In this document: piece after piece, positions 414 through 25,608 of the stretch
How the letters are laid out: each line of letters begins with the position of its first letter
Position numbering within the stretch: the first letter of the stretch is position 1
NCBI GenBank assembly: GCA_030529505.1
Contig: JAUMWT010000012.1
Location: 16,001-48,000, forward strand
DNA from: Brachymonas sp.
GTDB lineage: Bacteria; Pseudomonadota; Gammaproteobacteria; Burkholderiales; Burkholderiaceae_C
DNA: 32,000 nt
Direction of reading: 5' to 3'
Notes under the pieces: generated by a model
Told to the model about the DNA's origin: nothing
The model's database searches: none
The model's input: only the letters and a program-made list of their open reading frames with translations
Program-made: the position numbers and the translations under genes

Positions 414-2222
414 ATGAAGCACATCCGAAATTTTTCCATCATTGCGCATATTGACCACGGCAAGTCCACCCTGGCCGACCGCCTGATTGCGCGTTGCGGC
501 GGTCTTTCGCAACGCGAGATGAGCGAGCAGGTGCTCGACTCGATGGACATCGAGAAAGAGCGCGGCATCACCATCAAGGCGCAGACGGCCGCGCTGCAAT
601 ACAAGGCGCAAGACGGCAAGGTCTACAACCTGAACCTGATCGACACGCCCGGCCACGTGGACTTCAGCTACGAGGTGAGCCGCTCGCTCTCGGCCTGCGA
701 AGGCGCGCTGCTGGTGGTGGATGCCAGCCAGGGCGTGGAAGCGCAAACCGTGGCCAACTGCTACACCGCGCTGGATCTGGGCGTGGAAGTGCTGCCCGTG
801 CTCAACAAGATGGATTTGCCGCAGGCCGATCCCGACAACGCCAAGGCCGAGATCGAGGACGTGATCGGCATCGACGCGAGCGAGGCCATCGCCATCTCGG
901 CCAAGACCGGCATGGGCATTGACGAGGTGCTGGAGCAGATCGTGGCCAAGGTGCCGCCGCCGCGCGGCAAGCCCGATGCCCCGCTGCGCGCCATGATCAT
1001 CGACAGCTGGTTCGACGCCTACGTGGGCGTGGTGATGCTGGTGCGCGTGGTCGATGGCCGCCTGCAAAAGGGCGAGCGCATCAAGCTCATGGCTACGGGC
1101 GCGGCCTACGAGGCCAACAACGTGGGCGTGTTCACCCCCGCGCAGCAGCCGCGCGATGCACTGGAAGCGGGCGAGGTGGGCTACGTCATCGCCGGCATCA
1201 AGGAACTGAAGGCCGCCAAGGTGGGCGACACCATCACGCTGGAGAAAAAGCTGCCCAACAACCTGGGCCCGGCCGAGCAAGCCTTGCCCGGCTTCAAGGA
1301 GATCCAGCCGCAGGTGTTTGCCGGCCTGTACCCGACCGAGGCCAACCAGTACGACGCGCTGCGCGACAGCCTGGAAAAGCTGCAGCTCAACGACGCTTCG
1401 CTGCACTTCGAACCCGAGGTGAGCCAGGCGCTGGGCTTTGGCTTTCGCTGCGGTTTTCTGGGCCTGCTGCACATGGAAATCGTGCAGGAGCGGCTGGAGC
1501 GCGAGTTCGACATGGACCTCATCACCACCGCGCCCAGCGTGGTGTACGAGGTGCAGAAGGCCGATGGCGAGGTCATCCAGGTTGAAAACCCCTCCAAGAT
1601 GCCCGACCAGGGCCGCATTCAGGAAGTGCGCGAGCCGATCGTGACCGTGCACCTGTACATGCCGCAGGATTACGTCGGCCCGGTGATGACGCTGGCCAAT
1701 CAGAAGCGCGGCGTGCAAATCAACATGCAGTACCACGGCCGCCAGGTGATGCTGACCTACGAAATGCCGCTGGGCGAAATCGTGCTGGACTTCTTCGACA
1801 AGCTCAAGAGCGTGAGCCGCGGCTATGCGTCCATGGACTACGAGTTCAAGGAATACCGCCCGTCCGACGTGGTGAAGGTGGACATGCTGCTCAACGGCGA
1901 AAAGGTCGATGCGCTGTCCATCATCGTGCACCGCAGCCAGGCGCAGTTCCGCGGGCGCGCGGTGGCGGCCAAGATGCGCGAGATCATCAGCCGCCAGCAG
2001 TTCGACGTGGCGATCCAGGCCGCTATTGGCGCCAACATCATCGCCCGCGAGAACATCAAGGCCCTGCGCAAGAACGTGCTGGCCAAGTGCTACGGCGGCG
2101 ACATCACGCGCAAGCGCAAGCTGCTGGAAAAACAGAAGGCCGGCAAGAAGCGCATGAAACAGATCGGTTCGGTCGAGGTGCCGCAAGAGGCGTTCCTGGC
2201 CATTTTGCAAGTGGAAGAATAA
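414..2222 (+). CDS. lepA: Elongation factor 4 (translational GTPase LepA)
   Basis: 602 aa, ATG start, TAA stop. GTPase motifs [21 protein letters not shown]. lepB follows 5 nt downstream, as in the conserved lepA-lepB operon. Confidence 0.97.
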
Positions 2223-2227
2223 ATCGC

Positions 2228-3274
2228 ATGGCCTACCTCACAGCACTGGTTCTGGGGCTTTTTGTCGCCTACATGGGCGGTTGGTTTTTGGGTTACGTCG
2301 AAGGCAATATGGCCCTGCTGCTGTCGCTGGCAACGCTGGTGACGGGCATGTACTGGCTGGCCGACAAATTGATCTTTCTGCCCAGGCGCCGCGCCCTGGT
2401 GGCACGCTACGAGCAACAGCTGACCGCCGCCACAGCGCCTGCCACGAGCGGGGCTGCAAGCGATGCGGTGCAGGCACAGTCCGCCCAAGCTGCCCAATCC
2501 GTTCAAGCCGCTAGCGACGAGCAGCAGCAAACCATCAAGAAGCGCTTGCTGGCCCAGCCCTGGTGGCTGGACTGGACGGCAGGCCTCTTCCCCGTGATTG
2601 CGCTGGTATTCACCTTGCGTTCGTTTGCCTTTGAGCCGTTCAAGATTCCATCGGGTTCCATGCTGCCCACGCTGGAAGTGGGCGACCTGATTCTGGTCAA
2701 CAAATGGAAGTGGGGCCTGCGCCTGCCTGTGGTGCATACCAGGCTCACCCAGGGCAGCCCCGTGCAGCGCGGCGATGTGATGGTGTTTCGCTACCCGCCC
2801 AAGCCCAGCGTGGATTACATCAAGCGCGTGGTGGGCCTGCCGGGCGACACCGTTTCCTACCTGAACAAGCAGCTCGTCATCAACGGCCAGGAAATCGAAA
2901 AAATGCCGATGGCCGATTACCTTGGCCTGCAAGAAAAACCCGGCGCTGACGGCCAAACCGTGGCCGAGCCCGTGCAGCTGGAGCAGTATCGCGAGCAGCT
3001 GGGCACGCACACCCACCGGCTTTTGAACGATCCGCAGCGGCCTGCGGGCATTCCCATTGCAGAGAGTTTTCCGAAGCAGGAAAGCTGTAATTACAGCCCC
3101 GAGGGCGTGACCTGCAAAGTCCCCGAAGGGCACTATCTGGTGCTGGGCGACAACCGTGACGATTCCTACGACTCGCGCTTCTGGGGCTTTGTGCCCGAGC
3201 GCAACATCGTGGGCAAGGCCGAGGTGGTGTGGCTCAATCTGGGCAATTTGCGGCGTATTGGCCGCATTGATTGA
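2228..3274 (+). CDS. lepB: Signal peptidase I
   Basis: 348 aa from ATG 2228; the track ORF 2087..3274 starts too far upstream, inside lepA. N-terminal TM helices. Signal peptidase I boxes IPSGSMLPTL, RGDVMVFRYP, YIKRVVGLPGD, GDNRDDSYDSRFWGFV. Confidence 0.93.
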   Translation: MAYLTALVLGLFVAYMGGWFLGYVEGNMALLLSLATLVTGMYWLADKLIFLPRRRALVARYEQQLTAATAPATSGAASDAVQAQSAQAAQSVQAASDEQQQTIKKRLLAQPWWLDWTAGLFPVIALVFTLRSFAFEPFKIPSGSMLPTLEVGDLILVNKWKWGLRLPVVHTRLTQGSPVQRGDVMVFRYPPKPSVDYIKRVVGLPGDTVSYLNKQLVINGQEIEKMPMADYLGLQEKPGADGQTVAEPVQLEQYREQLGTHTHRLLNDPQRPAGIPIAESFPKQESCNYSPEGVTCKVPEGHYLVLGDNRDDSYDSRFWGFVPERNIVGKAEVVWLNLGNLRRIGRID

Positions 3275-3415
3275 TCGATGAGCAGAGATTGGACGGTGGT
3301 CGGGCAATGAGGTAACGAATAGTTACTACAATAGCAGCAGTGGCTTTGTTCGATCCATCAAAAAAGATCACTCCCGGCAAATTCAGATACCTTGACATTG
3401 GCAAAGGAATTCACC

Positions 3416-3781
3416 ATGCGGTCGCATTCAGGCTTGGCGCACAAACAGCGCGGCATCACTTTCATCGGCCTCTTGTTTGTGGCCGTCATCGTCGGCTTCC
3501 TGATGATCGTGGCAGCCAAAACGGTGCCCACGGTCATCGAATATCAGGCCATCGTCAAAGCCATCAACAAGGCCAAAGACAACGAAACCGTGGCTGAAAT
3601 CGAGCGCTCTTTCAACGCGGCTGCCGCCATTGACGATTTCACCGCCGTGCGTGCCGAAGATTTGGTGATCACCAAAGAAAACGGCCAGGTCATGATCGAA
3701 TTTGCCTACGACAAAGAGATCAAACTCATGGGCCCGGTTTCGCTGCTGATTCACTACTCCGGCAGCACCAAGGGCAAGTGA
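3416..3781 (+). CDS. Small membrane protein with pilin-like N-terminus (DUF4845-like)
   Basis: 121 aa from ATG 3416 with AAAGGAA about 7 nt upstream; the track ORF begins at an upstream TTG 3392. Hydrophobic N-terminus RGITFIGLLFVAVIVGFL. Its position between lepB and rnc matches the DUF4845 gene I recall there in Burkholderiales (not searched). Confidence 0.6.
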   Translation: MRSHSGLAHKQRGITFIGLLFVAVIVGFLMIVAAKTVPTVIEYQAIVKAINKAKDNETVAEIERSFNAAAAIDDFTAVRAEDLVITKENGQVMIEFAYDKEIKLMGPVSLLIHYSGSTKGK

Positions 3782-3782
3782 T

Positions 3783-4592
3783 TTGAGCAAGCCGCCGGGC
3801 GCTGCGCGCGCCTCTTCGCCCGATCAGGCCGCAGCCAGCGCGCTGCTGGCGCGCCAGTTGGGGCATGTGTTTGCCCAACCAGCCTTGCTGCAACAGGCGC
3901 TCACGCACCGCAGCTTCTCGGCCGACCACAACGAGCGGCTGGAGTTTCTGGGCGACTCGGTGCTCAACCTCGCCGTCTCAAGCCTTTTGTACGAACGTTT
4001 GCCGCAAGCGCCAGAAGGCGATCTCTCGCGCATTCGCGCCAATCTGGTCAAGCAAGACAGCTTGCACCGCATTGCTCTCAAACTCGATTTGTCGCCCGCC
4101 TTGCGACTGGGCGAGGGCGAGTTGCGCTCCGGCGGCTTGAAGCGCCCCTCCATCCTGGCCGACGCACTCGAAGCCGTTTTGGGCGCGGTGTATCTGGACG
4201 CAGGCTATGCCGTGGCCGAAGCCTTGGTGCACCGCCTGTTTGCCGATGTGGATGTGCAAGAACATGCCCAGGCCTCGGGCAAAGACGCCAAAACGGCCTT
4301 GCAAGAGTGGTTGCAAGCGCGCAAATACGCCGTGCCGCAGTATCAAGTCACAGACGTGGGCGGGCAGGCGCACCAGCAAACCTTCTGGGTGGTGTGTGAA
4401 GTAGCAGCCCTGGGCATTCGGCAAAGTGGCAGCGGTAGTTCGCGCCGCGCGGCCGAGCAAGACGCCGCCGGCAAAATGCTGGCCCAGTTGCAGACCAACC
4501 ACGTGCAGCCCGAAACTGCCCGCAAAAAACCGGCCAACAAGGCGCGCAAAATGGCATCGCTACGCTCGGCATCGGGCAAGGCGGTCCCATGA
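3783..4592 (+). CDS. rnc: Ribonuclease III
   Basis: 269 aa. RNase III signature ERLEFLGDSVLN preceded by ALTHRSF, with a C-terminal dsRNA-binding region (KTALQEWLQ...). The only start upstream of the conserved core is TTG 3783, adjacent to the previous stop. Basic C-terminal tail. Confidence 0.9.
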   Translation: MSKPPGAARASSPDQAAASALLARQLGHVFAQPALLQQALTHRSFSADHNERLEFLGDSVLNLAVSSLLYERLPQAPEGDLSRIRANLVKQDSLHRIALKLDLSPALRLGEGELRSGGLKRPSILADALEAVLGAVYLDAGYAVAEALVHRLFADVDVQEHAQASGKDAKTALQEWLQARKYAVPQYQVTDVGGQAHQQTFWVVCEVAALGIRQSGSGSSRRAAEQDAAGKMLAQLQTNHVQPETARKKPANKARKMASLRSASGKAVP

Positions 4593-4622
4593 GGGTTGTG
4601 CGCAAAGCACAAGCCATTTTTT
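4593..4622 (+). terminator. Rho-independent terminator-like hairpin after rnc
   Basis: GGGTTGTGC-gcaaa-GCACAAGCC (one mismatch) followed by ATTTTTT, starting right after the rnc stop codon. Confidence 0.5.
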
Positions 4623-5059
4623 GATGCGCGTGTTGTGCTCCCCTTGCTTGGTAATGGCCGAATGGAACGGGGTGTTTGTTTGGCTTGATGCATGGCTGCA
4701 TAGCCATGAATAGCGAGCGAACCTTGGCTGAATGGCATGCGGTCGATTCATTTATCGAGTCAGTCGGGCGCTTTCAGCTTCAAAAAATTGTGGTGTAAAG
4801 CCGTGAAGAAACACCATGCCAAAAACCCTTGCCAAGTGGCGCTGTTGTTGGGCTCTGTACGTGTAGTGAAAGCTACAGTTGAAGGCTTCAAAAAGATTGC
4901 CACGGTTGGAATCGCTCGTGTCGCCACATAGTGGCCTACCCTGCCAACGCAAGCCACTGCCTGTGACCAGACACAACAAGTTTGTGATCGTTTGTCGTCG
5001 CAGCCGCATTTTCTTTTGTACGCTGCAAGCGTTTTTCTGTTTTCAAGAAGTCATTGCTC

Positions 5060-6106
5060 ATGTCCAAAAAAACTGCCCACCCCTCGCCCGAAAACGGCAC
5101 CTTGTCTGCCGAAGTCAACGCCCAGCTTCAGGCCATTTTGGGGCGGAGTGCGTCATCGGGTGCGGGCGAGACAGCTGCAAGAGAAAGTGCTGTGGCCAGC
5201 GTGCCAGCAGCTGAACAACACTGCGGCCTGATCGCTATTGTGGGTCGCCCCAATGTGGGCAAATCCACATTGCTGAATGCGTTGGTGGGGCAAAAAATCA
5301 GCATCACCAGCCGCAAGGCGCAAACCACGCGCCACCGCATCATGGGTATCTGCACACGTGGCGTCTATCAATATGTGTTTGTCGATACGCCCGGCTTTCA
5401 AACCCGGCACGGCAATGCGCTCAACAAATCCTTGAACAAGGCCGTGGCCGGCGCCGTATCGGACGTGGACTTGGTGCTGTTCGTGGTTGAGGCCGGACGC
5501 TTTGGCGCGGAAGATGTCAAGGTGCTGGAACTGCTGCCGCCCAATGTGCCCGTGATCTTGATCGCCAGCAAGCTCGATGCCGTGCCTCAGCGCCAGAACC
5601 TGCCGCCCTGGTTGCTGGAAATGCAGCAGCGCCACCCCTTTGCCGAGCTGATGCCCATTTCCGCCAAAAACCGCCAGGACGTGCAGCGCGTGCTGGACGT
5701 GGTGGCGCGCTACCTGCCGCAGCAGCCGTGGTGGTACGGTGCCGATGAGCTCACCGACAAAAGCGAGCGCTTTCTGGCTGCCGAAATCGTGCGCGAAAAA
5801 CTGTTCCGCCTGACGGGCGATGAACTGCCCTACACCTCCACCGTGGTGGTCGATCAGTTCGAAGAAGAACCCGGCAAACAAGCTGCCCGCATGGTGCGCA
5901 TCGCCGCCACCATCATCGTTGAGCGTGAGGGGCACAAGGTCATGGTCATCGGTGAAAAAGGTGAACGCATCAAACGCATCGGCACCGAAGCCCGGCAGGA
6001 GCTGGAAAAACTGCTCAACGCCAAAGTCTTTATCGAACTGTGGGTCAAGGTGCGATCGGGCTGGGCCGACGATGCCGCCCGTGTGCGGGCGTTTGGGTAT
6101 GAGTGA
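5060..6106 (+). CDS. era: GTPase Era
   Basis: 348 aa from ATG 5060; the track ORF starts at TTG 5054. G1 motif [13 protein letters not shown]3 motif DTPG, KH-type C-terminal half. About 55 aa of low-complexity N-terminal extension. Confidence 0.92.
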
Positions 6107-6138
6107 ATGCGGGTGCCGTAACCATCGGCCCATTCATT

Positions 6139-6150
6139 TGGCGGGACGAT
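6139..6150. repeat. Weak third att-like copy (tggcgg-gacgat)
   Basis: Matches the 13-nt tRNA-Ser 3'-end core tggcggagacgaa at 11 positions with a 1-nt gap. Lies 33 nt after the era stop. Short, so it could be chance. Confidence 0.25.
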
Positions 6151-6314
6151 GCGCACACATGCTTAAATGTGCGCGTCAAGACTTTACCCTTTTGCTCTTT
6201 GCGTATGTACTTGGGGCTGGAGCAAAGCTTATTCGGGGATAAGGTAGATACCAGCTTAGATTGTTAGATTGAGCCTAGAGAGCGTTGGGCGTTGATTTGT
6301 TCGTGATCAACGTA

Positions 6315-6378
6315 GAAATCGAGGCAGAAAAAAGCCCACAAGCGCAAGCTGATGGGCAGTCATTGAATCTCAAATTTG
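6315..6378. repeat. Direct repeat: copy of the prophage right end (3' end of the HTH gene)
   Basis: gaaatcgaggcagaaaaaagcccacaagcgcaagctgatgggc... aligns with 14468..14531 (gaaatcgaggcagaaaaaaagcccacaagcgcgagcttatgggc...). The first ~45 nt differ only by one extra A and two substitutions; similarity is weaker for the next ~20 nt. Confidence 0.75.
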
Positions 6379-6387
6379 AAAAACAAA

Positions 6388-6412
6388 AACGCCCTGGAAG
6401 GGGCGTTTTTAT
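6388..6412. terminator. Bidirectional terminator-like hairpin
   Basis: AACGCCC-tggaag-GGGCGTT flanked by an A-run (aaaaacaaaaa) and a T-run (ttttt). Confidence 0.45.
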
Positions 6413-6418
6413 TGAGCC

Positions 6419-6431
6419 TGACGGAGACGAA
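6419..6431. repeat. Putative attL core (tgacggagacgaa)
   Basis: 12 of 13 nt identical to 14530..14542 (tggcggagacgaa), which is the reverse complement of the last 13 nt of tRNA-Ser including CCA. Lies just outside the recombinase gene and its terminator. Confidence 0.55.
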
Positions 6432-6463
6432 CGTTTCCGAGTATTGCGTATGGTTAAAAAATA

Positions 6464-6495
6464 CAACAAAAAGCCAGCAAGTTGCTGGTTTTTTT
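6464..6495. terminator. Bidirectional terminator hairpin downstream of the recombinase gene
   Basis: CCAGCAA-g-TTGCTGG with T7 on the plus side and ctttttgttg on the minus side. Begins 5 nt after the TGA (6500-6502) that ends the out-of-frame HTH segment of the recombinase. Confidence 0.6.
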
Positions 6496-6499
6496 GTGC

Positions 6500-7077
6500 T
6501 CAAGGGTCAGCAGCCGAGAAGATTTCTGCATGGTACTTCTTGAAGTAGCGCTTGATGGCAGAGGTTGTCATACCCTACCTTCTCGATATTTCAGGCCTCG
6601 TGACTCCTCGCCAATACAAGGCTTTGATGTTGCGCAGAGCGTCGTCAGGGATGGTGCAGGGACGGCGCTGAGCCTGGCCCCTTTTTCGACGGCTGCACGC
6701 TGGCCGGCAATGGAGCGTTCGCGGATGAGGTTGCGTTCGAGTTCTGCGACGGCTCCCAATATCTGGAGCATGAAGCGGCCCAAGTAGTTATCGGTTTGAA
6801 CGGGTTCGGTGAGGCTGCGAAATTTGCAGCCTTTGCGTTCCAGTGTTTCCAGTATGTGCAGCAGGTCTTTGAGGCTTCTCGCCAAGCGATCCAGTTTGTA
6901 GACCAACAGGGTGTCGCCGGGCTTGACCGCTTGGAGGAGTTTTTGCAGTTCCGGGCGGGCGCCAACGCTACTGGTTTTTTCGTGGTAAATGTGCTCTGCG
7001 CCAGCTTCTTGCAGGGCGTCGAGTTGCAGTTGGGTGTCTTGTTCGATGCTGCTGACACGGGCGTATCCGTAGATCAT
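6500..7077 (-). pseudogene. Small serine recombinase (resolvase/invertase family), C-terminal HTH domain disrupted
   Basis: Catalytic domain is intact in ORF 6568..7077: MIYGYARVSSIEQD, LLVYKLDRLARS, ILGAVAELERNLIRERS. After ...AAVEKG the frame gives unrelated residues. The expected DNA-binding domain (RRPCTIPDDALRNIKALYWRGVTRPEISRR*GMTTSAIKRYFKKY) is read in a frame offset by a net 1-nt deletion, contains TAG at 6575-6577 and ends at TGA 6500-6502. A homopolymer run A5G4 (6678-6686) sits at the likely shift point. Confidence 0.7.
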
Positions 7078-7196
7078 TTGGGCTCCTTGGGTAGTAAATT
7101 AGCTCACGTTGCAAAAGCCACGCCAGAACCCGCTGTGCGGAACCTGGCATGTCTTTTGGCTTTAACGTTCGCTGCGCGAAAAACAGCTCTAGCCCG

Positions 7197-7271
7197 AATT
7201 TGCACACACCTCCATCAAGCCCCCACCCAGGGTGAGGGGCGATTGATGGAGGTGTCTGGTTTGTGCAAATT
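7197..7271. repeat. Long imperfect inverted repeat (extended hairpin)
   Basis: aatttgcacacacctccatcaa (7198-7218) pairs with ttgatggaggtgtctggtttgtgcaaatt (7243-7271). The inner part gcccccaccc/gggtgaggggc also pairs. Confidence 0.5.
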
Positions 7272-7291
7272 ACGGGCTTTCGCCCGTTTTT
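7272..7291 (+). terminator. Terminator-like hairpin
   Basis: ACGGGC-tttc-GCCCGT followed by TTTTT, immediately after the long inverted repeat. No annotated plus-strand gene lies upstream. Confidence 0.4.
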
Positions 7292-7388
7292 CTATGTGAT
7301 GATTTGAGCACCCTATCCCCCCCGCCCCTTTCCCCTAGGAAAGGGGAGCGAGGGAGCTTCTTTCTGAAGGTGTCTAAAAGGGAAAAAG

Positions 7389-7622
7389 ATGAACGATTGG
7401 GAATTGGTGAGTGAGTTGCAAGACGTTGAAACGTTTGCAAAGGGTTCGGCCATCCGGGAGCTTCGGCGCTTGATTCGGGCGTATGGCGGTTCAAACTGGC
7501 GCAAGCGCAAGGGGTTCGGCTGGGTGCGCTTGGAGTCTGGCGAAATTTGCGAAGCTGAACTACACTGGTACGAGGCGCACGGTGTGGGCAAGGTTGAAAT
7601 GAAGATCAAGGACTTTCTATGA
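7389..7622 (+). CDS. Hypothetical small protein, upstream member of an overlapping two-gene cassette
   Basis: 77 aa, ATG with AAGGGAAAAAG upstream. C-terminal motif WRKRKGFGWVRLESGEICEAELHWYEAHGVGKVEMKIK, which I recall from conserved small hypothetical proteins in diverse bacteria. Its stop overlaps the next start (ATGA at 7619-7622). Confidence 0.7.
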   Translation: MNDWELVSELQDVETFAKGSAIRELRRLIRAYGGSNWRKRKGFGWVRLESGEICEAELHWYEAHGVGKVEMKIKDFL

Positions 7623-7828
7623 GCTGGGTAATTTGCATCAATAACGAAGGGTACGAAGCAAGTTTGGAGCGGCGCAAGCTGTATCAGGTGTTGCCTGATG
7701 CCAAGGCCGAAAGCAAGAACATGGTTCGCGTGGTGGATGAGTCAGGTGATGACTATCTGTATTCGGCCAAGTTGTTTGAAAAGATTGAGGTTGCCAAACT
7801 GCTTGAACAGCAGTTGATGGTTGCATAA
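7619..7828 (+). CDS. Hypothetical small acidic protein, downstream member of the cassette
   Basis: 69 aa, translationally coupled by the ATGA overlap. Motif YEASLERRKLYQVLPD...VRVVDESGDDYLYSAKLF resembles a recurrent partner of the upstream family (from memory). Confidence 0.7.
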   Translation: MSWVICINNEGYEASLERRKLYQVLPDAKAESKNMVRVVDESGDDYLYSAKLFEKIEVAKLLEQQLMVA

Positions 7829-7845
7829 GAAATTTGCTCGACGTA

Positions 7846-7890
7846 GCTGGCGAAGCGTATCCCCACAAGTGGGGCCCCTCGCTCGCCAGC
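7846..7890. terminator. Convergent (bidirectional) terminator structure between the cassette and zot
   Basis: Nested hairpin: outer gctggcgaagcg / cgctcgccagc, inner CCCCAC-aa-GTGGGG (7861-7874). Lies between two convergent genes. Confidence 0.5.
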
Positions 7891-7909
7891 ACGCTCGCAA
7901 AAATCAACA

Positions 7910-9259
7910 TCACTCTTTCCCTGTAGTCACTGATCGCCGCTCCGCCACCACGGCAGGCGTGTGTTCCATGTAGATCGTGCGCGGGCGCGTTGGCTCGGCA
8001 ACGTTCACGCTGCGCAGGTGTCTATCATCAGAATAGGCACCTGTTGCACTGTCCATCACCAACGGCCTATCTGCTGCACCGCTGGCAAGCGGCGGCGGAT
8101 CGCAAGTCACAGCACGTTTTTTCGCACCGGGGTACTCCAACACACCGAGGCAATGCGCAAAGCGCTTCCACGTGTAACCCGCAGCCTCTAAATCCTTGTC
8201 GGTAACCTCGAAGAACGTTTGCCCGCCCTCGCTCACCACGAAGGCCGTCAACTCTTTCGCGCCCATCTTCAGGTGTCCCACTTGATGGATCAACTTGCCC
8301 ATGAGTGGTTCAAAGGGTTCTTCTTTTTTTTCTGGCTCGGCAGGCTGCGAGGCAGGCGCTTGCGGCAGCGGAGCGGCCGAAATCAGCACGGGCACCGGCT
8401 CTTTGCTTTGTTCGACTGTTTGCTTTGCTTTTGGCTCATCGGGCAATTTCACGCCCCAAAAGCTGTAGCCCTGCTTCGGCCAGAAGGCCCAGATCACGAA
8501 GGCGGCGCCTACCGTCAAGAACGCATAGGCAGCGCGCTTGATCTTGACGATCTTCGGAGACACATCAGACAAACCCGCTTCTTGCACCGTCTGGCTTTGC
8601 GTGTGGCTTTTGTAGAAGGGGAAGATGGTCGGGTCATACTTTCGCGTTTCTCTGCTCAATTCCGCACCACGGTAGCCACCGTGGACACGCCTTATGTACT
8701 CGCCCTTTTTGCCCAAGATGTCAGCTTTTCGGAGCTTGATAAGGCTGGCGAGCAAGATGCTCAAGGAACCATGCACATCACGCCAGCTTTGTGTGATGCC
8801 GGTGACGTCTGCGCCGAAGTGGCGCGAGAGCTTGGCCCACTGGATCACTTCTTTCAATTCCTTGGGCGGCATCAAGCCCTTGGGCCAAGCGTTGTGACAC
8901 TCATCGACCACGTAGAGCGGGCCTATGCCGCCCTCGCCACGCCATTCATCGTAGAAGTCCCACACGTGGCCAAACACGGGTACATCGGGCGGGTTTTCTG
9001 TGCGACCATCTTCGAAGAGCCTGAACGCCATTTCGCCACGGCTGGCTGCGTCAGCGTCCCAAGTCCCCCTGATTGGTTGCGGGAACTTGCGCACTTCAAT
9101 CAGAGCCGCCCAATCCGGGTTGATGGCCCTGATCTGATCTATTTGAAGGGGCAGATTGGTGATGACTTTTCGGCCAGCTTTGAGCGCGGGCAGGATGTGG
9201 TAATGCACGGCCTCATAACTTTTGCCGGAGCCGGGGATTCCTTCAATTCCAGACCACAT
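7910..9259 (-). CDS. Zot-like assembly ATPase (inovirus pI)
   Basis: 449 aa. N-terminal Walker A GIPGSGKSY in the context MWSGIEGIPGSGKSYEAVHYHILPALKAGRKVITNL, typical of the Zot/pI family. Central TM helix AYAFLTVGAAFVIWAFW. It is the last gene of the structural/assembly block. Confidence 0.9.
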   Translation of the reverse strand: MWSGIEGIPGSGKSYEAVHYHILPALKAGRKVITNLPLQIDQIRAINPDWAALIEVRKFPQPIRGTWDADAASRGEMAFRLFEDGRTENPPDVPVFGHVWDFYDEWRGEGGIGPLYVVDECHNAWPKGLMPPKELKEVIQWAKLSRHFGADVTGITQSWRDVHGSLSILLASLIKLRKADILGKKGEYIRRVHGGYRGAELSRETRKYDPTIFPFYKSHTQSQTVQEAGLSDVSPKIVKIKRAAYAFLTVGAAFVIWAFWPKQGYSFWGVKLPDEPKAKQTVEQSKEPVPVLISAAPLPQAPASQPAEPEKKEEPFEPLMGKLIHQVGHLKMGAKELTAFVVSEGGQTFFEVTDKDLEAAGYTWKRFAHCLGVLEYPGAKKRAVTCDPPPLASGAADRPLVMDSATGAYSDDRHLRSVNVAEPTRPRTIYMEHTPAVVAERRSVTTGKE

Positions 9260-20532: not shown

Positions 20533-20617
20533 TGTGTTGTCGGTTTTGAATCCGTGTTGGTAACGCGGCTTGCTGCCCTGGGCAAGCCGATTCGGTTTTT
20601 GTGGAAGGAGATACCCC

Positions 20618-21358
20618 ATGTCTATTCAGACTTTGACTTTGGGCCGCAGCAAGATCGCGCAATGGCTGCTGCTGGCCGCGCTGTGCCTGGGCGTGGCCGC
20701 CGTGCAGGCCGCCCCGCGCAAAAAAGCAGCGGCCGCGGCCAGCAAAACCAAAATGGTCGAGGCCAAGCCGCAGGTGCTGTTCCGCACCAATCTGGGCGAA
20801 TTCACGGTGGAGCTGGAACCCGCTGCAGCGCCCAAAACGGTTGAGAACTTTCTGCAATACGTCAACAGCGGGCACTACAACGGCACCATCTTTCACCGCG
20901 TGATCAGCAACTTCATGGTGCAGGGCGGCGGCTTTGATGCCAAGCTCGCGCAAAAGCCCACCCGCGCGCCCGTGGTGCACGAAGGGCGGCAAGCCCTGCA
21001 AGCGGGCCTGCGCAACACCGTGGGCAGCCTGGCGATGGCACGTACCAGCGAGATGAACTCGGCCACGGCGCAGTTCTTCATCAATGTGAAAGACAACGCT
21101 TTTCTCGACCCCACCCCCATCCCCGATGGCGACCCTGTGCCGCGCTTTGTGTACCAGGGCAAAACCTATGCCAACCTGCCGCGCGCGCAATTGCTGCGCC
21201 ACCCTGGGCTGGCGGGCTACACCGTGTTTGGCAAGGTCATCAGCGGCATGGACGTGATCGAAAAAATCCGCACCACGCCCACGGGCGCGGCTGGCCCCTT
21301 CAGCAGCGACGTGCCCAAAACCACCGTGCTGATCGAGTCTGCGCGGCAGATCAAGTAA
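20618..21358 (+). CDS. ppiA: Periplasmic peptidyl-prolyl cis-trans isomerase (cyclophilin type)
   Basis: 246 aa from ATG 20618 (GGAAGGAG upstream). Signal peptide ...[10 protein letters not shown]. Cyclophilin motifs [15 protein letters not shown] and SATAQFFIN. Confidence 0.9.
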
Positions 21359-21447
21359 ACTCGGCGCGCCTTGGCAACCTGCCGCTGGCCTGTGTAGGCG
21401 CGGCAGGTTTTTTCACGAAAAACATCCCCTTTCTTTCTTCATCCATC

Positions 21448-21954
21448 ATGAGCACACAAGTCATCCTGCACATCGCCAACCGTGGCCCCATCACCATCGA
21501 ACTGGACGAAAGCAAGGCCCCCATCACCGTGGCCAACTTTCTGGAATACGTGCGCAACGGCCACTACAACGGCACCGTGTTTCACCGCGTGATTCCGGGC
21601 TTCATGATCCAGGGCGGCGGCTTTGCACCCGGCATGGAGCAAAAGCCCACCGCCAAAGAAATCCAGAACGAAGCCAACAACGGCCTGAAAAACGACAAAT
21701 ACACCATCGCCATGGCACGCACCAGCGCTCCTCATTCGGCCAGCGCCCAGTTCTTCATCAACGTGGCCGATAACGACTTCCTCAACCACAAATCACCCAC
21801 ACCGCAAGGCTGGGGCTATGCCGTGTTCGGCAAAGTGGTGGAGGGGCAAGACGTGGTTGATCAGATCGCAGGCGTTGCCACCGGCCGCCGCGGCATGCAC
21901 GACGACGTGCCCAAAGACGACGTGCTGATCGAAAAGGCCGAAATCAAGGCTTGA
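21448..21954 (+). CDS. ppiB: Cytoplasmic peptidyl-prolyl cis-trans isomerase (cyclophilin type)
   Basis: 168 aa with no signal peptide. Motifs [15 protein letters not shown] and SASAQFFIN. Confidence 0.93.
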
Positions 21955-23683: not shown

Positions 23684-24223
23684 TTAAGTAGAGTACAGCT
23701 TGGAATAAGGGTTGTTTTTATCCAGCACCGCATACAGAAAAGGCAACAGCGCATTCACCCCATCACGCGGCGGGCGGTGGTTGCGACCGTCAAAATTAAA
23801 ACCGCTTTTCTCCGAAAGCAAATGCCGACTCCCCACAATAACGCGCCGCCGCATCACCCTCAAACCCGCGTACCTTGTCCAAACTCTCTGCCCGCTTGAG
23901 CTGCTGCAAAGAAAATTTCAACGCTGTTACCTCCGCATGCTCGCGATGATTACGCAAACGCCGCTGCAACACCCGCTTGGTTGACTGAATCTTCGCCGCA
24001 AAACCCCATCAAAAAAAGGCGATACCAACACGTTGCCGAAACAAAAAATATGCCCGATCGCATGCACCGGCAACTGCGCCACCTTCTTGCGCTCCTGCTT
24101 CTCTACCAGCGTTTCCTGCTCTTGATAATTGCCTTGAGCGGTGTTGTGGAGCGTGTTTTGAATTTTGCGCATGATTGCAAAATCCCTTGGTTTTTGAGCG
24201 AACTTTTGAGACTTAATAGGCAT
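23684..24223 (-). pseudogene. cas1: cas1 remnant (frameshifted, internally deleted, 3'-truncated)
   Basis: Minus-strand translation gives MRKIQNTLHNTAQGNY...LPVHAIGHIFCFGNVLVSPFF, then in other frames MGFCGE..., RVLQRRLRNHRE..., [12 protein letters not shown]..., and [34 protein letters not shown]. This is the N-terminal ~half of a Cas1 as I recall the type I-C-like consensus, broken by several frameshifts and stops, and it ends abruptly about 30 nt from the lpxH stop. Confidence 0.75.
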
Positions 24224-24339
24224 TTCGATTGCCTAAAAAATATTGTCGATCGAGTTCTTAAATTTGACATTTTTTAAACTGCTGTAATAATTTGAGGGCT
24301 GGGAATGAATTGTTGGATATAACTATTCGGTCTGCGTTT

Positions 24340-25044
24340 TTAATTAAAGTAAGGGTTGGGGCTCCACTCGTTGGCGACATTTTGATTAAAGTGGGCTGTT
24401 AAATTTGGAAATTGTATTAATGGCGGATTTTTTATATTATTGTTTGTGGATATGAATTGTTGAAAACGCAAAGCCAGGTTGGGTGTTGGTGGATTTCCAG
24501 TCTTGAAATTTTTGAAAATAATTGTATTGATACTGCGTATATCTGATTTGTTAGGTGTTTGTGTGGGGTTTTTTGTTAAGTTGAACAGTATATTGGCCAA
24601 TGCGCCTCCAATGTTATTTAAGTTCCACATGATACATATCATGCCTATTGCATCATAAAGTTCTTTTGCAATTGGATTCCAGTTTGGCATTTGATGAGCA
24701 GGGCCACCTCTTCCTCTGACTCTATTGGTACTGTTTGGAGTTCCGGCTTGAGTAAAGCCGGATAAAGGGTCAAATAAAGGCAATCGATTTATTGCTGGAT
24801 TTTGCTGTTTTATTAAATCGATAAAATCATTCGCGGCAGTTACTCCGCAAACAAAAGTGCCAGAGTCGTATTGATTTTTATGGCTTTGGTAGCTGAAAAC
24901 GTAGTATTCTCTATCTAGGGTTGGTCCGGCACAACTTTCCTTGGTTTGTCCTTCAAGTAGTTTGACGTGAGCTAAAGGGATAATTTCAAATTCTTGAACC
25001 AGTTGCTCTCTAGTTCTTTCTCCACGACAATCAGTAATAGGCAT
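24340..25044 (-). CDS. Orphan protein in an AT-rich insertion (unknown family)
   Basis: 234 aa from ATG 25044, or 247 aa from ATG 25083. It is an uninterrupted ORF in markedly AT-rich DNA, where stop codons would be frequent by chance. Same strand as the cas remnants. No motif recognised. Asn/Pro/Thr-rich C-terminal half. Confidence 0.7.
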   Translation of the reverse strand: MPITDCRGERTREQLVQEFEIIPLAHVKLLEGQTKESCAGPTLDREYYVFSYQSHKNQYDSGTFVCGVTAANDFIDLIKQQNPAINRLPLFDPLSGFTQAGTPNSTNRVRGRGGPAHQMPNWNPIAKELYDAIGMICIMWNLNNIGGALANILFNLTKNPTQTPNKSDIRSINTIIFKNFKTGNPPTPNLALRFQQFISTNNNIKNPPLIQFPNLTAHFNQNVANEWSPNPYFN

Positions 25045-25137
25045 TTTATTTTTTCCAATTTCAATAAAAACACATAAATTCAATTTTGTAGGCCATAGAC
25101 TTTTAGTCTAACTTGCTCAATTTATTGATTATTTATT

Positions 25138-25608
25138 TCACTGCTCAAACAGCTCCACCACATATCCAACCGACCTATCCCTTTCCATCAACTTCGGCTG
25201 GCAAACCTCCACCAACGAACAGGCTTTACAACGTTTGCCGTATTCCGGTGGCGGGGTGATGCCGCTTTCCAGAAGTTCGCGTACCTGACGGATAACGTCC
25301 AGCGTCTGCGCCCTAAGGCCGTCTGAAAACACTACTGGCACGCGGTGGTGGGTTTGCATCTACCACAATGCGCCCTCTGCCACCGTTTGCCCGGTCATTT
25401 CCTCCAAGCACATGGCTTGGGCGCAGAGCTGGATTTCGTCGAAGGGCTCGGGCTTTGGTTTGCCGTGTTTGTATTCCACAGGTTTCAGGTAGCTCGTTTT
25501 TGTATCGCGCTCGAGCATATCCAGCACACCGTGCATGCTTAAGTTTTCTGCCGACGCATATGGCAGTACTTGAGGTGCTGCAAATCTCTTGGAGCGAGTG
25601 TGCCGCCT
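25138..25608 (-). pseudogene. cas4: cas4 remnant (5'-truncated, in-frame TAG)
   Basis: A single minus-strand frame gives ...[87 protein letters not shown]...KRCKACSLVEVCQPK. This has the RecB-like VEYKxG and QLCAQAxCLEEM motifs and the C-terminal CX2CX5C cluster of Cas4. TAG at 25360-25362. The N-terminal ~45 aa are missing, and the frame abuts the sixA stop codon. Confidence 0.75.

Follow-up and report, generated by a model that had tools for sequence, protein, structure and literature searches.

In a 32,000-nt stretch of a Brachymonas sp. metagenome-assembled genome (positions 16,001 to 48,000 of contig JAUMWT010000012.1; hereafter the window), an AT-rich block of ~965 bp lies between the remnants of the type I-C genes cas4 and cas1. 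The block carries a single intact open reading frame (ORF), whose 234-aa product we named X. The findings presented here suggest that the block is probably a cargo cassette of a hypervariable defence-gene slot inside the I-C operon, and that X is probably a stand-alone immunity gene acting against phages or mobile elements.

The slot was observed in a metagenome scan for close relatives of this Cas4. The best 80 of 488 matches to one Cas4 clade, with 77-97% identity to the Cas4 of locus L006 (loci are given by L numbers), were retrieved, and 71 of these 80 loci carried both cas4 and cas1. An earlier note on the window had taken it that the two genes normally abut, which in this I-C clade they never did (0 out of 71 loci). 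A gap of 611-2,880 bp separated them in all cases, with a GC content of 0.26-0.41 compared to 0.53-0.60 in cas4, and Cas1 was full-length in nearly all of the 71 loci. The gap contained X in one locus (L041), an 87-aa ORF alone in another (L069) and other cargo in the remaining 69. When the same-strand ORFs of at least 100 aa in the gaps of 78 loci were clustered, the cargo amounted to 51 protein families in 46 architectures. One representative of each of the 50 non-X families was scanned against Pfam and PADLOC, and the following cargo was recognised:

AbiP2-type defence reverse transcriptase (AbiP2/DRT), PADLOC E = 3e-199
Shedu SduA, PADLOC E = 2e-152
PDC-S35 / CAP12-type TIR protein, PADLOC E = 6e-104
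AlwI-like type II endonuclease with D12 methylase, Pfam and PADLOC
BsuBI/PstI endonuclease with Eco57I-type methylase, Pfam
GmrSD, four families
AAA_15 / OLD / Gabija / PARIS-like ATPases, three families
DarT with a Macro-domain protein, Pfam
TIR_2, SLATT_5, Abi_C, PIN_12, HNH_5, DUF3800, DUF2971 and Nmad2, Pfam

PADLOC matches were missing for five of the ten most frequent cargo families. By this tally of families, which is not an enrichment statistic against the genome background, the slot is a hotspot of defence genes that also holds unannotated families, X among them.

One of the occupants was a 210-aa Nmad2-domain protein (Pfam E = 4e-58; no PADLOC match), found in L054 (4352-4981) and also in L049, L066, L067, L072 and L077. 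Its cassette was the smallest (gap of 605 bp) and the most frequent single occupant in the Cas4-based sample. Cargo families 15, 17, 20 and 23 were also devoid of a defence annotation, and together with the Nmad2 protein they are candidate new defence genes. In the same I-C clade, a second variable position was seen between cas3 and cas5 (L001 4043-5900, L002 4098-5960, L004 2288-5839 and L006 3985-5814), whose cargo was an AAA_15 + OLD-TOPRIM protein (two genes in L001), a 1,183-aa SIR2_2 protein, or GmrSD. The decayed locus L003/L012 (L003 ~600-8800) carried a block with Kiwa (KwaA/KwaB), an N6_N4 methylase, DUF1016 and ResIII between its cas3 and cas8 fragments.

X in the window compared to complete type I-C loci

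The GC content was 0.37-0.42 over positions 24001-25200, whereas the window as a whole averaged 0.58 and the flanks ranged from 0.55 to 0.65. This profile and the mapping of the cas homology bore out the earlier description, made from the letters alone, of a discrete and compositionally foreign block at the cas4/cas1 junction. The limit proposed on the cas4 side (25138) held, while the cas1 start, placed at 24223 in the earlier note, lies by homology at the ATG 24172-24170, so that the block spans 24173-25137 (GC ~0.38). The anchors and the cassette are organised as follows:

25147..25560, minus strand: cas4 (type I-C) remnant, left anchor of the slot; residues ~82-220; in-frame stop at 25360-25362; natural stop TGA at 25138-25140
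25045..25137, minus strand: left cassette spacer; 93 bp, AT-rich; palindrome at 25096-25110; weak GGA ribosome-binding site (RBS) before the ATG
24340..25044, minus strand: X, PF27729/UCP028583 member; intact 234-aa ORF; NCBI MDO4795317.1, hypothetical protein, annotated as 247 aa from the TTG at 25083
24173..24339, minus strand: right spacer; towards cas1 (~24173-24250) a degenerate copy of the conserved pre-cas1 block, aligned with L005, L041, L006 and L023
23714..24172, minus strand: cas1 (type I-C) remnant, right anchor of the slot; residues 1-66, ~110-170 and 174-210 in three frames (tblastn)

The longest ORF of the block (24340..25083, minus strand) encodes 247 aa from a TTG start and 234 aa from the ATG at 25044. 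Since the homologues of X all begin with MPI and have matching lengths (226-247 aa, mostly 233-236), the product is likely the 234-aa form. X has a GC content of 0.382 and a GC content at third codon positions (GC3) of 0.323, the cas4 and cas1 remnants have a GC3 of 0.63-0.71 and ppk one of 0.83. Stop codons account for ~6.6% of random codons at the base composition of X, and arithmetic from this composition gives a chance of ~1e-7 per frame position for at least 234 open codons, in agreement with the earlier remark that more than 230 of them are unlikely to arise by chance.

No transposase or integrase was found in the block with Pfam, PHROGs, PADLOC or NCBIfam, X being the sole ORF of at least 60 aa confined to it. 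The block presented neither terminal inverted repeats nor other meaningful inverted repeats, and no Rfam match, and a promoter/terminator scan gave nothing above chance. The palindrome pointed out earlier is present at 25096-25110 (TAGACT-AAA-AGTCTA), but its arms measure only 6 bp and it is not conserved, being broken in the 93%-identical contig L005. In the right spacer, an RBS-like AAGGGA was located at 24183-24188 and AAGTTCGCT at 24197-24205, the latter with two mismatches to the uptake-sequence core AAGTGCGGT.

The cas4 remnant lacks ~81 codons at its N-terminal end and is interrupted by a stop. Its two ORFs (25138-25359 and 25360-25536) matched Cas4c in PADLOC (E = 2e-17 and 1e-20, respectively) and also Cas_Cas4 in Pfam, and it showed 66-76% identity to the intact Cas4 of L001-L006 (tblastn). 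From cas1 the C-terminal ~127 residues are gone. The ORF 23927-24223 matched Cas1c (PADLOC E = 8e-10) and cas1_DVULG (NCBIfam), and the reading frame is open in L005 where the window copy is scrambled. In the window, tblastn with the proteins of four intact relatives gave nothing for cas3, cas5, cas8c and cas7, and neither cas2 nor a CRISPR repeat array was found. The type I-C locus of the window is a remnant, not a functional locus.

In complete loci the gene order was cas3-(variable)-cas5-cas8c-cas7-cas4-X-cas1-cas2, with X on the cas strand. In Rodentibacter, Mannheimia varigena and Aggregatibacter kilianii, as well as in several metagenomic contigs, both genes flanking X were intact. The spacers measured 15-58 bp in several complete loci and were as short as 15-35 bp in Pasteurellaceae loci. 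Because X sits there between intact cas4 and cas1, and the junction was occupied in 71 out of 71 loci, the block did not break the adaptation module, contrary to a possibility first raised for the window. The idea of a recent arrival in this genome had to be given up as well. L005 presented the same cas4-X-cas1 layout, and all three parts were ~94% identical to the window at the nucleotide level. In every locus X had a GC content of 0.34-0.38 and a GC3 of 0.18-0.32, including L006, where the flanking cas genes have a GC3 of ~0.7, and its AT-richness is not a mark of recent arrival. Between loci, X showed 68-87% identity and Cas4 72-87%, X diverging about as fast as Cas4 and Cas8c.

An 87-aa ORF was observed between cas4 and X in the Aggregatibacter/Haemophilus-type loci L003 (9595-9858), L023 (9595-9858), L012 and L021. 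It gave sub-threshold helix-turn-helix (HTH) matches (Sigma70_r4_2 E = 7e-4, HTH_Tnp_1 and HTH_23), is absent from the window and fills the slot without X in L069 (1510-1770). This ORF may be a separate regulatory module.

X remained intact in several loci with damaged cas genes. Apart from the window, these were L003/L012 (cas3, cas8, cas4, cas1 and cas2 all in fragments), L021 (cas1 and cas2 partly deleted) and L022, which contains no cas DNA. The ratio of non-synonymous to synonymous substitution rates (dN/dS) of X was 0.18 between the window and L005 (17 synonymous and 12 non-synonymous differences), 0.21 between L021 and L022, and ~0.2 across the subfamily. These values and the mapped cas remnants support the earlier suggestion of an intact ORF, here under purifying selection, beside broken cas genes. 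X is probably autonomous of Cas4 and Cas1.

The outer neighbours of the locus, assigned with Pfam, were a metallophosphoesterase (lpxH-like) gene on one side and histidine phosphatase and ppk genes on the other. The window and L022 both have ppk close to X, but in a different orientation and with other genes in between, and a link between X and ppk was therefore rejected. Further away in the window (20570-21954), two adjacent ORFs of 262 and 168 aa resemble, by appearance, paralogous genes of the cyclophilin type (peptidyl-prolyl isomerase). The direct repeats D1, D2 and D6 of this region pair these two ORFs and are therefore no sign of a mobile element.

Cassette edges and proposed exchange of the cargo

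The limits of the cassettes were determined by comparing loci with different cargo. On the left, similarity stopped at the end of cas4 or within its last codons. The right edge is marked by a conserved block, 60-110 nt long, in front of the cas1 ATG, and it holds the RBS AAGGAG and very often AAGTGCGGT, which we take to be the core of the Haemophilus-type uptake signal sequence (USS). Upstream of this pre-cas1 block, TTCAGGTAGCC, TTCAGACGGC and similar motifs were found, presumably reverse complements of the DNA uptake sequence (DUS) dialects of Neisseriaceae. Exact copies of AAGTGCGGT within 150 nt of cas1 were present in 18 of the 71 loci, at a density ~6-fold that of the rest of the loci, and exact or one-mismatch copies occurred in the last 50 nt before cas1 in 33 of the 71. 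The Eikenella-type DUS motif was ~30-fold denser at the cas1-side boundary. Altogether, at least one exact uptake motif lay within 150 nt of the cas1 ATG in 32 out of 71 loci.

An element of ~100 nt also recurred in the last ~60-170 nt before the pre-cas1 block, in which a DUS-like motif comes after the inverted repeat GTCGGATTC...GAATCCGAC. This element was seen in many loci (for example L068, L048, L058 and L094) and weakly in the window at ~24250-24330, and it looks like a small Neisseriaceae intergenic repeat or a terminator.

A recombination tract was delimited in one locus pair, the decayed L003 and its close intact relative L023. The ~1.26 kb comprising the 87-aa ORF, X and both spacers were ~0.5% divergent, compared to 10-13% in the adjoining cas4 and cas1, and the tract had sharp edges, which fell on the 3' end of cas4 and the 5' end of cas1. 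In L022, the homology of the orphan X to the I-C loci was confined to X itself with ~38 bp upstream and ~20 bp downstream. Differences in history were also apparent at a larger scale: by pairwise identities among L001-L006, the effector module (cas5/cas8/cas7) and the adaptation module (cas4/X/cas1/cas2) did not share the same history. Between L002 and L004, for instance, Cas5/8/7 were 96-98% identical but Cas4, X and Cas1 80-87%, and recombination therefore shuffles whole modules of the locus besides the cassettes.

Two known types of mobile unit were tried as an explanation and rejected. A transposon or insertion sequence would not account for the lack of a transposase and of terminal inverted repeats, nor for the fact that in all loci the cassettes end at the cas4 stop and at the pre-cas1 block, and where only 15-30 bp separate X from cas1 there is no room for the attC of an integron cassette. 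Because of the recombination tract, the uptake motifs and the lack of transposase, integrase and terminal repeats, replacement of the whole cassette is the simplest mechanism.

In the mechanism that we propose, the slot would belong to an I-C clade common to naturally transformable, host-associated bacteria (Haemophilus, Aggregatibacter, Rodentibacter, Mannheimia and Neisseriaceae-type hosts). The genes cas4 and cas1 would act as conserved anchors, and the DNA between them would be replaced wholesale by homologous recombination in the anchors, probably aided by natural transformation through the uptake-sequence motifs at the cas1-side edge. Such a replacement requires an allele from a donor, and as empty ones do not appear to circulate, the slot would never be found empty. 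It would usually be occupied by known anti-phage genes, X being an alternative single-gene cassette derived from the plasmid- and integrative and conjugative element (ICE)-borne PF27729 family. In the Brachymonas lineage, the I-C locus would then have decayed and left the cassette with the stumps of both anchors.

The X family, its predicted structure and its genomic contexts

In a large protein collection, the close homologues of X formed 34 clusters, all of them tagged as Pfam PF27729 'UCP028583'. Identity was 62-94% over 100% of the query for 33 of them and 38% over 77% for the remaining one (P0034), with E values from 5.5e-149 to 8e-25. The membership of X in PF27729 rests on these precomputed tags of its homologues; the exact X sequence clusters with the tagged P0001, and the alignment of tagged distant members extends over both domains. 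The tag was also carried by most distant homologues recovered by a profile search, and the whole family comprised 309 clusters at 50% identity (E <=0.001), mostly of 200-235 aa. The earlier note recognised no family. This was correct for the local libraries, in which X gave no match with Pfam (in a copy evidently without PF27729), PHROGs, PADLOC or NCBIfam, save a meaningless NCBIfam match (E = 0.25), but not in view of the PF27729 tags. When 51 family members were compared to PADLOC and PHROGs, the matches were only marginal, the best one to a defence family being PDC-S32 (E = 0.0075). No Acr or Aca family match was found, and a search of open-access papers and preprints returned nothing on UCP028583/PF27729.

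The family alignment showed a conserved N-terminal domain (C6, R7, Y47/Y48, F50, G67 and 'LPLFNPL'), a variable low-complexity linker and a C-terminal domain with the conserved motifs 'W.P.AKELY.AI' and 'NTII'. The AlphaFold model of X was confident (pLDDT 86.4, pTM 0.85) and consisted of an alpha/beta domain (1-97), a disordered R/G-rich linker (98-116) and a C-terminal five-helix domain. The N-terminal domain is acidic (pI 5.0), the linker and the C-terminal domain are basic (C-terminal pI 9.6), and the median pI of the family is 8.85. The structure search that the earlier note had called for gave no recognisable fold: Foldseek of the model against PDB and BFVD gave no significant match (best E ~0.2, TM score <0.2), weak hits to a PX domain and to the enolase N-terminal domain being treated as noise. 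A PDB sequence search with X gave no real match, and the profile of the 51 family members reached a best E value of 0.16. A Cys/His zinc site (C6, H26, C38 and C66) was also discarded, as only C6 is near-invariant. The family alignment presented no invariant acidic/histidine set suggestive of catalysis, and because no conserved catalytic-looking residues were seen, X is likely a binder rather than an enzyme. Presumably derived from mobile elements, it would more likely bind nucleic acid or a protein of the invader than attack enzymatically.

Members of the X family were found on 29 plasmid records, from Staphylococcus, Lysinibacillus, C. perfringens, Campylobacter, Enterobacter, Hafnia, Pectobacterium and Vibrio, and in none of 50,697 phage records. 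No viral contig carried the close subfamily, and one prophage-like contig carried a distant member. The contexts of the distant members included:

an ICE/plasmid-like contig with TraN, TraH, TraC and an integrase
an integrase/HTH island
a position between resolvases in Clostridium saccharoperbutylacetonicum
a position directly before a phage-type integrase in two Bacillaceae
the edge of the prophage-like contig, adjoining an ABC-3C SIR2 system

On a Hafnia plasmid, the X homologue lies between a zincin-like metallopeptidase gene, whose product presumably resembles the ArdC antirestriction proteins, and SIR2 and ToxN/AbiQ genes. On pJFP55H, it belongs to a co-directional block just after a topoisomerase gene. 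Integrases and T4SS genes were among the neighbours of the distant members. In none of the contexts examined did a distant member adjoin cas genes.

Genes for an Endonuclease_NS (non-specific DNA/RNA endonuclease) were seen within a few kb of an X homologue in L028 (S. aureus pJRA307-1; 2454-3344) and L015 (11033-11785). This proximity on two unrelated mobile elements could be a coincidence or a loose functional link. The orphan X of L022 (1411-2175; JVVZ01000518.1, a record labelled Neisseria meningitidis 1273_NMEN) forms an island of ~0.75 kb, with a GC content of 0.28-0.41 in DNA of ~50% GC. It is placed upstream of ABC-transporter, cadD, nnrS and ppk genes, with no cas sequence on either side.

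Role of X and meaning of the slot

Among the three roles put forward in the earlier note, that of a stand-alone defence or counter-defence gene fitted the evidence best, and neither a match to a well-known family nor a lack of association with cas or defence loci came out of the searches. If X works alone in immunity, it would therefore have stayed intact and under purifying selection after the decay of the cas genes. Several points weigh against the reading of X as an immunity gene in an exchangeable cassette. The 71 loci come from one Cas4 clade and are not representative of type I-C systems in general. The function of X is read from its context, PADLOC, PHROGs, NCBIfam and PDB having given no match even through family members or their profile, and guilt by association with a hotspot is weak for any single gene when about half of the frequent cargo families are unannotated. 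The plasmid relatives, located in transfer regions and beside a zincin-like metallopeptidase gene, fit an anti-defence or plasmid-maintenance function at least as well. Regarding selection, the dN/dS between the window and L005 averages the time before and after the cas decay, and does not cleanly show selection after it, while the differences in X between L003 and L023 (one synonymous and five non-synonymous) are too few to interpret. The remnants contain internal disabling lesions (~4 in ~874 bp in the window and ~4 in ~1.3 kb in L003), and by our own arithmetic the chance that the 705-bp X escaped them by luck is ~0.04 in the window and ~0.1 in L003, which is no more than suggestive. As for the exchange, USS and DUS motifs are frequent genome-wide in these hosts, and the proposed transformation is drawn from the enrichment of putative uptake motifs.

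Given the plasmid contexts, the serious rival is an anti-defence role. X would then stem from plasmids, as an anti-defence or anti-CRISPR-like gene with which plasmids and ICEs neutralise the immunity of the host, and its captured or hitchhiking copy in the cas operon may modulate the CRISPR system or another defence. The association of the family with plasmids and ICEs and its absence from phages would agree with such a role, and so would its place after the topoisomerase gene of pJFP55H, the Hafnia neighbour with its presumed likeness to ArdC, the two-domain, non-enzymatic look with an acidic N-terminal domain, and the decay of the cas genes in several X loci. Nevertheless, many loci combine X with intact genes from cas3 to cas2, X diverges at rates similar to theirs, and the annotated co-occupants of the slot are overwhelmingly defence rather than anti-defence genes. 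An action against I-C in particular fits poorly with family hosts whose immune repertoires vary widely (Staphylococcus, Clostridium, Vibrio and Enterobacterales). We regard the anti-defence role as rather unlikely. Like the genes of anti-CRISPR (acr-aca) loci, X is a small unannotated gene of mobile-element origin that sometimes stands beside a small HTH-like ORF. Unlike them, it is larger than a typical Acr and resides in the host's own cas operon together with intact cas genes, and the HTH-like ORF upstream of X is also found without X (L069) and is absent from the window.

It is more doubtful that X has a housekeeping function of plasmids or chromosomes, as a DNA-binding regulator, a nucleoid-associated or maintenance factor, or a conjugation accessory, and occurs in the slot only since any suitably flanked AT-rich DNA can recombine into it. 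The basic C-terminal helical domain, the RG-rich linker and the basic median pI of the family would suit this explanation, as would the long co-directional gene blocks in which it is found on S. aureus and C. perfringens plasmids, and part of the slot cargo is indeed not recognisable as defence. However, X is kept under purifying selection as a lone chromosomal gene without plasmid context in the window and L022, defence genes (SIR2, ToxN and ABC-3C) are its neighbours in several settings, and Foldseek revealed no recognisable DNA-binding fold in PDB and BFVD.

A dedicated accessory of I-C adaptation, acting in prespacer capture or processing, corresponds to the new Cas4/Cas1-associated factor suggested in the earlier note, and we consider it very improbable. 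The fixed position on the same strand between cas4 and cas1, the short Pasteurellaceae spacers and a divergence that roughly parallels that of the cas genes would be expected from such a factor. Only one of the 71 close loci has X, however, and the other 70 keep a full-length cas1 with unrelated cargo, which largely excludes this explanation. Moreover, distant family members are never beside cas genes and occur on plasmids or ICE-like contigs without them, X persists intact without functional cas4 and cas1 and, in L022, without any cas DNA, and its recombination history differs from that of the cas flanks (L003/L023). Finally, a chance open frame or dead gene in AT-rich junk DNA, to which the empty result of four local family libraries and the lack of a promoter-like signal above chance would point, can be set aside given 34 close and more than 300 distant homologue clusters, a dN/dS of ~0.2, a confident two-domain model and an open-frame chance of ~1e-7.

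The reading of the block as an exchangeable immunity cassette was also compared to known systems. Defence hotspots between conserved anchors are well known from P2/P4 prophages and satellites (PMC9122126), the Pseudomonas aeruginosa core genome (PMC10250203) and E. coli islands (PMC10121019). The slot resembles them in its fixed site between conserved anchors and in its many alternative cassettes of one or two genes, mostly anti-phage and of foreign composition, which vary between close relatives. It differs in that the anchors are cas4 and cas1, inside the cas operon and co-oriented with the cargo, that no integrase or phage backbone is present, and that none of the 71 loci has an empty slot. 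Another parallel is provided by the 'minimal mobile elements' of Neisseria, cassettes that are swapped between conserved flanking genes by transformation and homologous recombination. Here too, the cassettes have no mobility genes of their own, the hosts are presumably competent, putative uptake sequences are near and the tract edges are sharp. In contrast, the site described here is in a cas operon and apparently common to several families, with Pasteurellaceae-type USS and Neisseriaceae-type DUS at the same edge, and transformation would be the probable route. The gene content and order of the intact relatives are those of the canonical type I-C system (Dvulg; cas3-cas5-cas8c-cas7-cas4-cas1-cas2), slots aside, to which this clade adds the cas4-cas1 cargo and the variable cas3-cas5 position, whereas the window keeps only partial cas4 and cas1. 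PF27729 (PIRSF UCP028583), with ~200-235 aa and the same two-domain conservation pattern as X, is a catalogued and uncharacterised family. Open-access papers and preprints gave no description of a hotspot between cas4 and cas1 or in cas operons, or of minimal mobile elements with CRISPR, which is not proof of novelty.

A bolder proposal can be advanced only tentatively. The cas4-cas1 junction and the cas3-cas5 position might together be an undescribed site of immune-cassette exchange in the I-C clade of oral and respiratory Neisseriaceae and Pasteurellaceae, driven by natural transformation, in which the unannotated cargo, including X, would be new immune genes and the placement would be functional. 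If so, the cargo could for example share its expression with cas1-cas2, or the DNA fragments for spacer acquisition could come from cargo nucleases. Annotators who meet an AT-rich block between broken cas genes of this clade should not take the block as the cause of the breakage. The slot would be an efficient place to find new defence systems, as it always contains a short co-oriented cassette and has already yielded more than a dozen known systems. It places innate-type defences inside an adaptive operon, between the genes that select and integrate spacers, and makes their co-regulation or cooperation directly testable. Altogether, the data suggest a route by which immune genes without mobility genes may pass between bacterial families that share a niche, using the cas anchors and the uptake sequences at the cassette edge.

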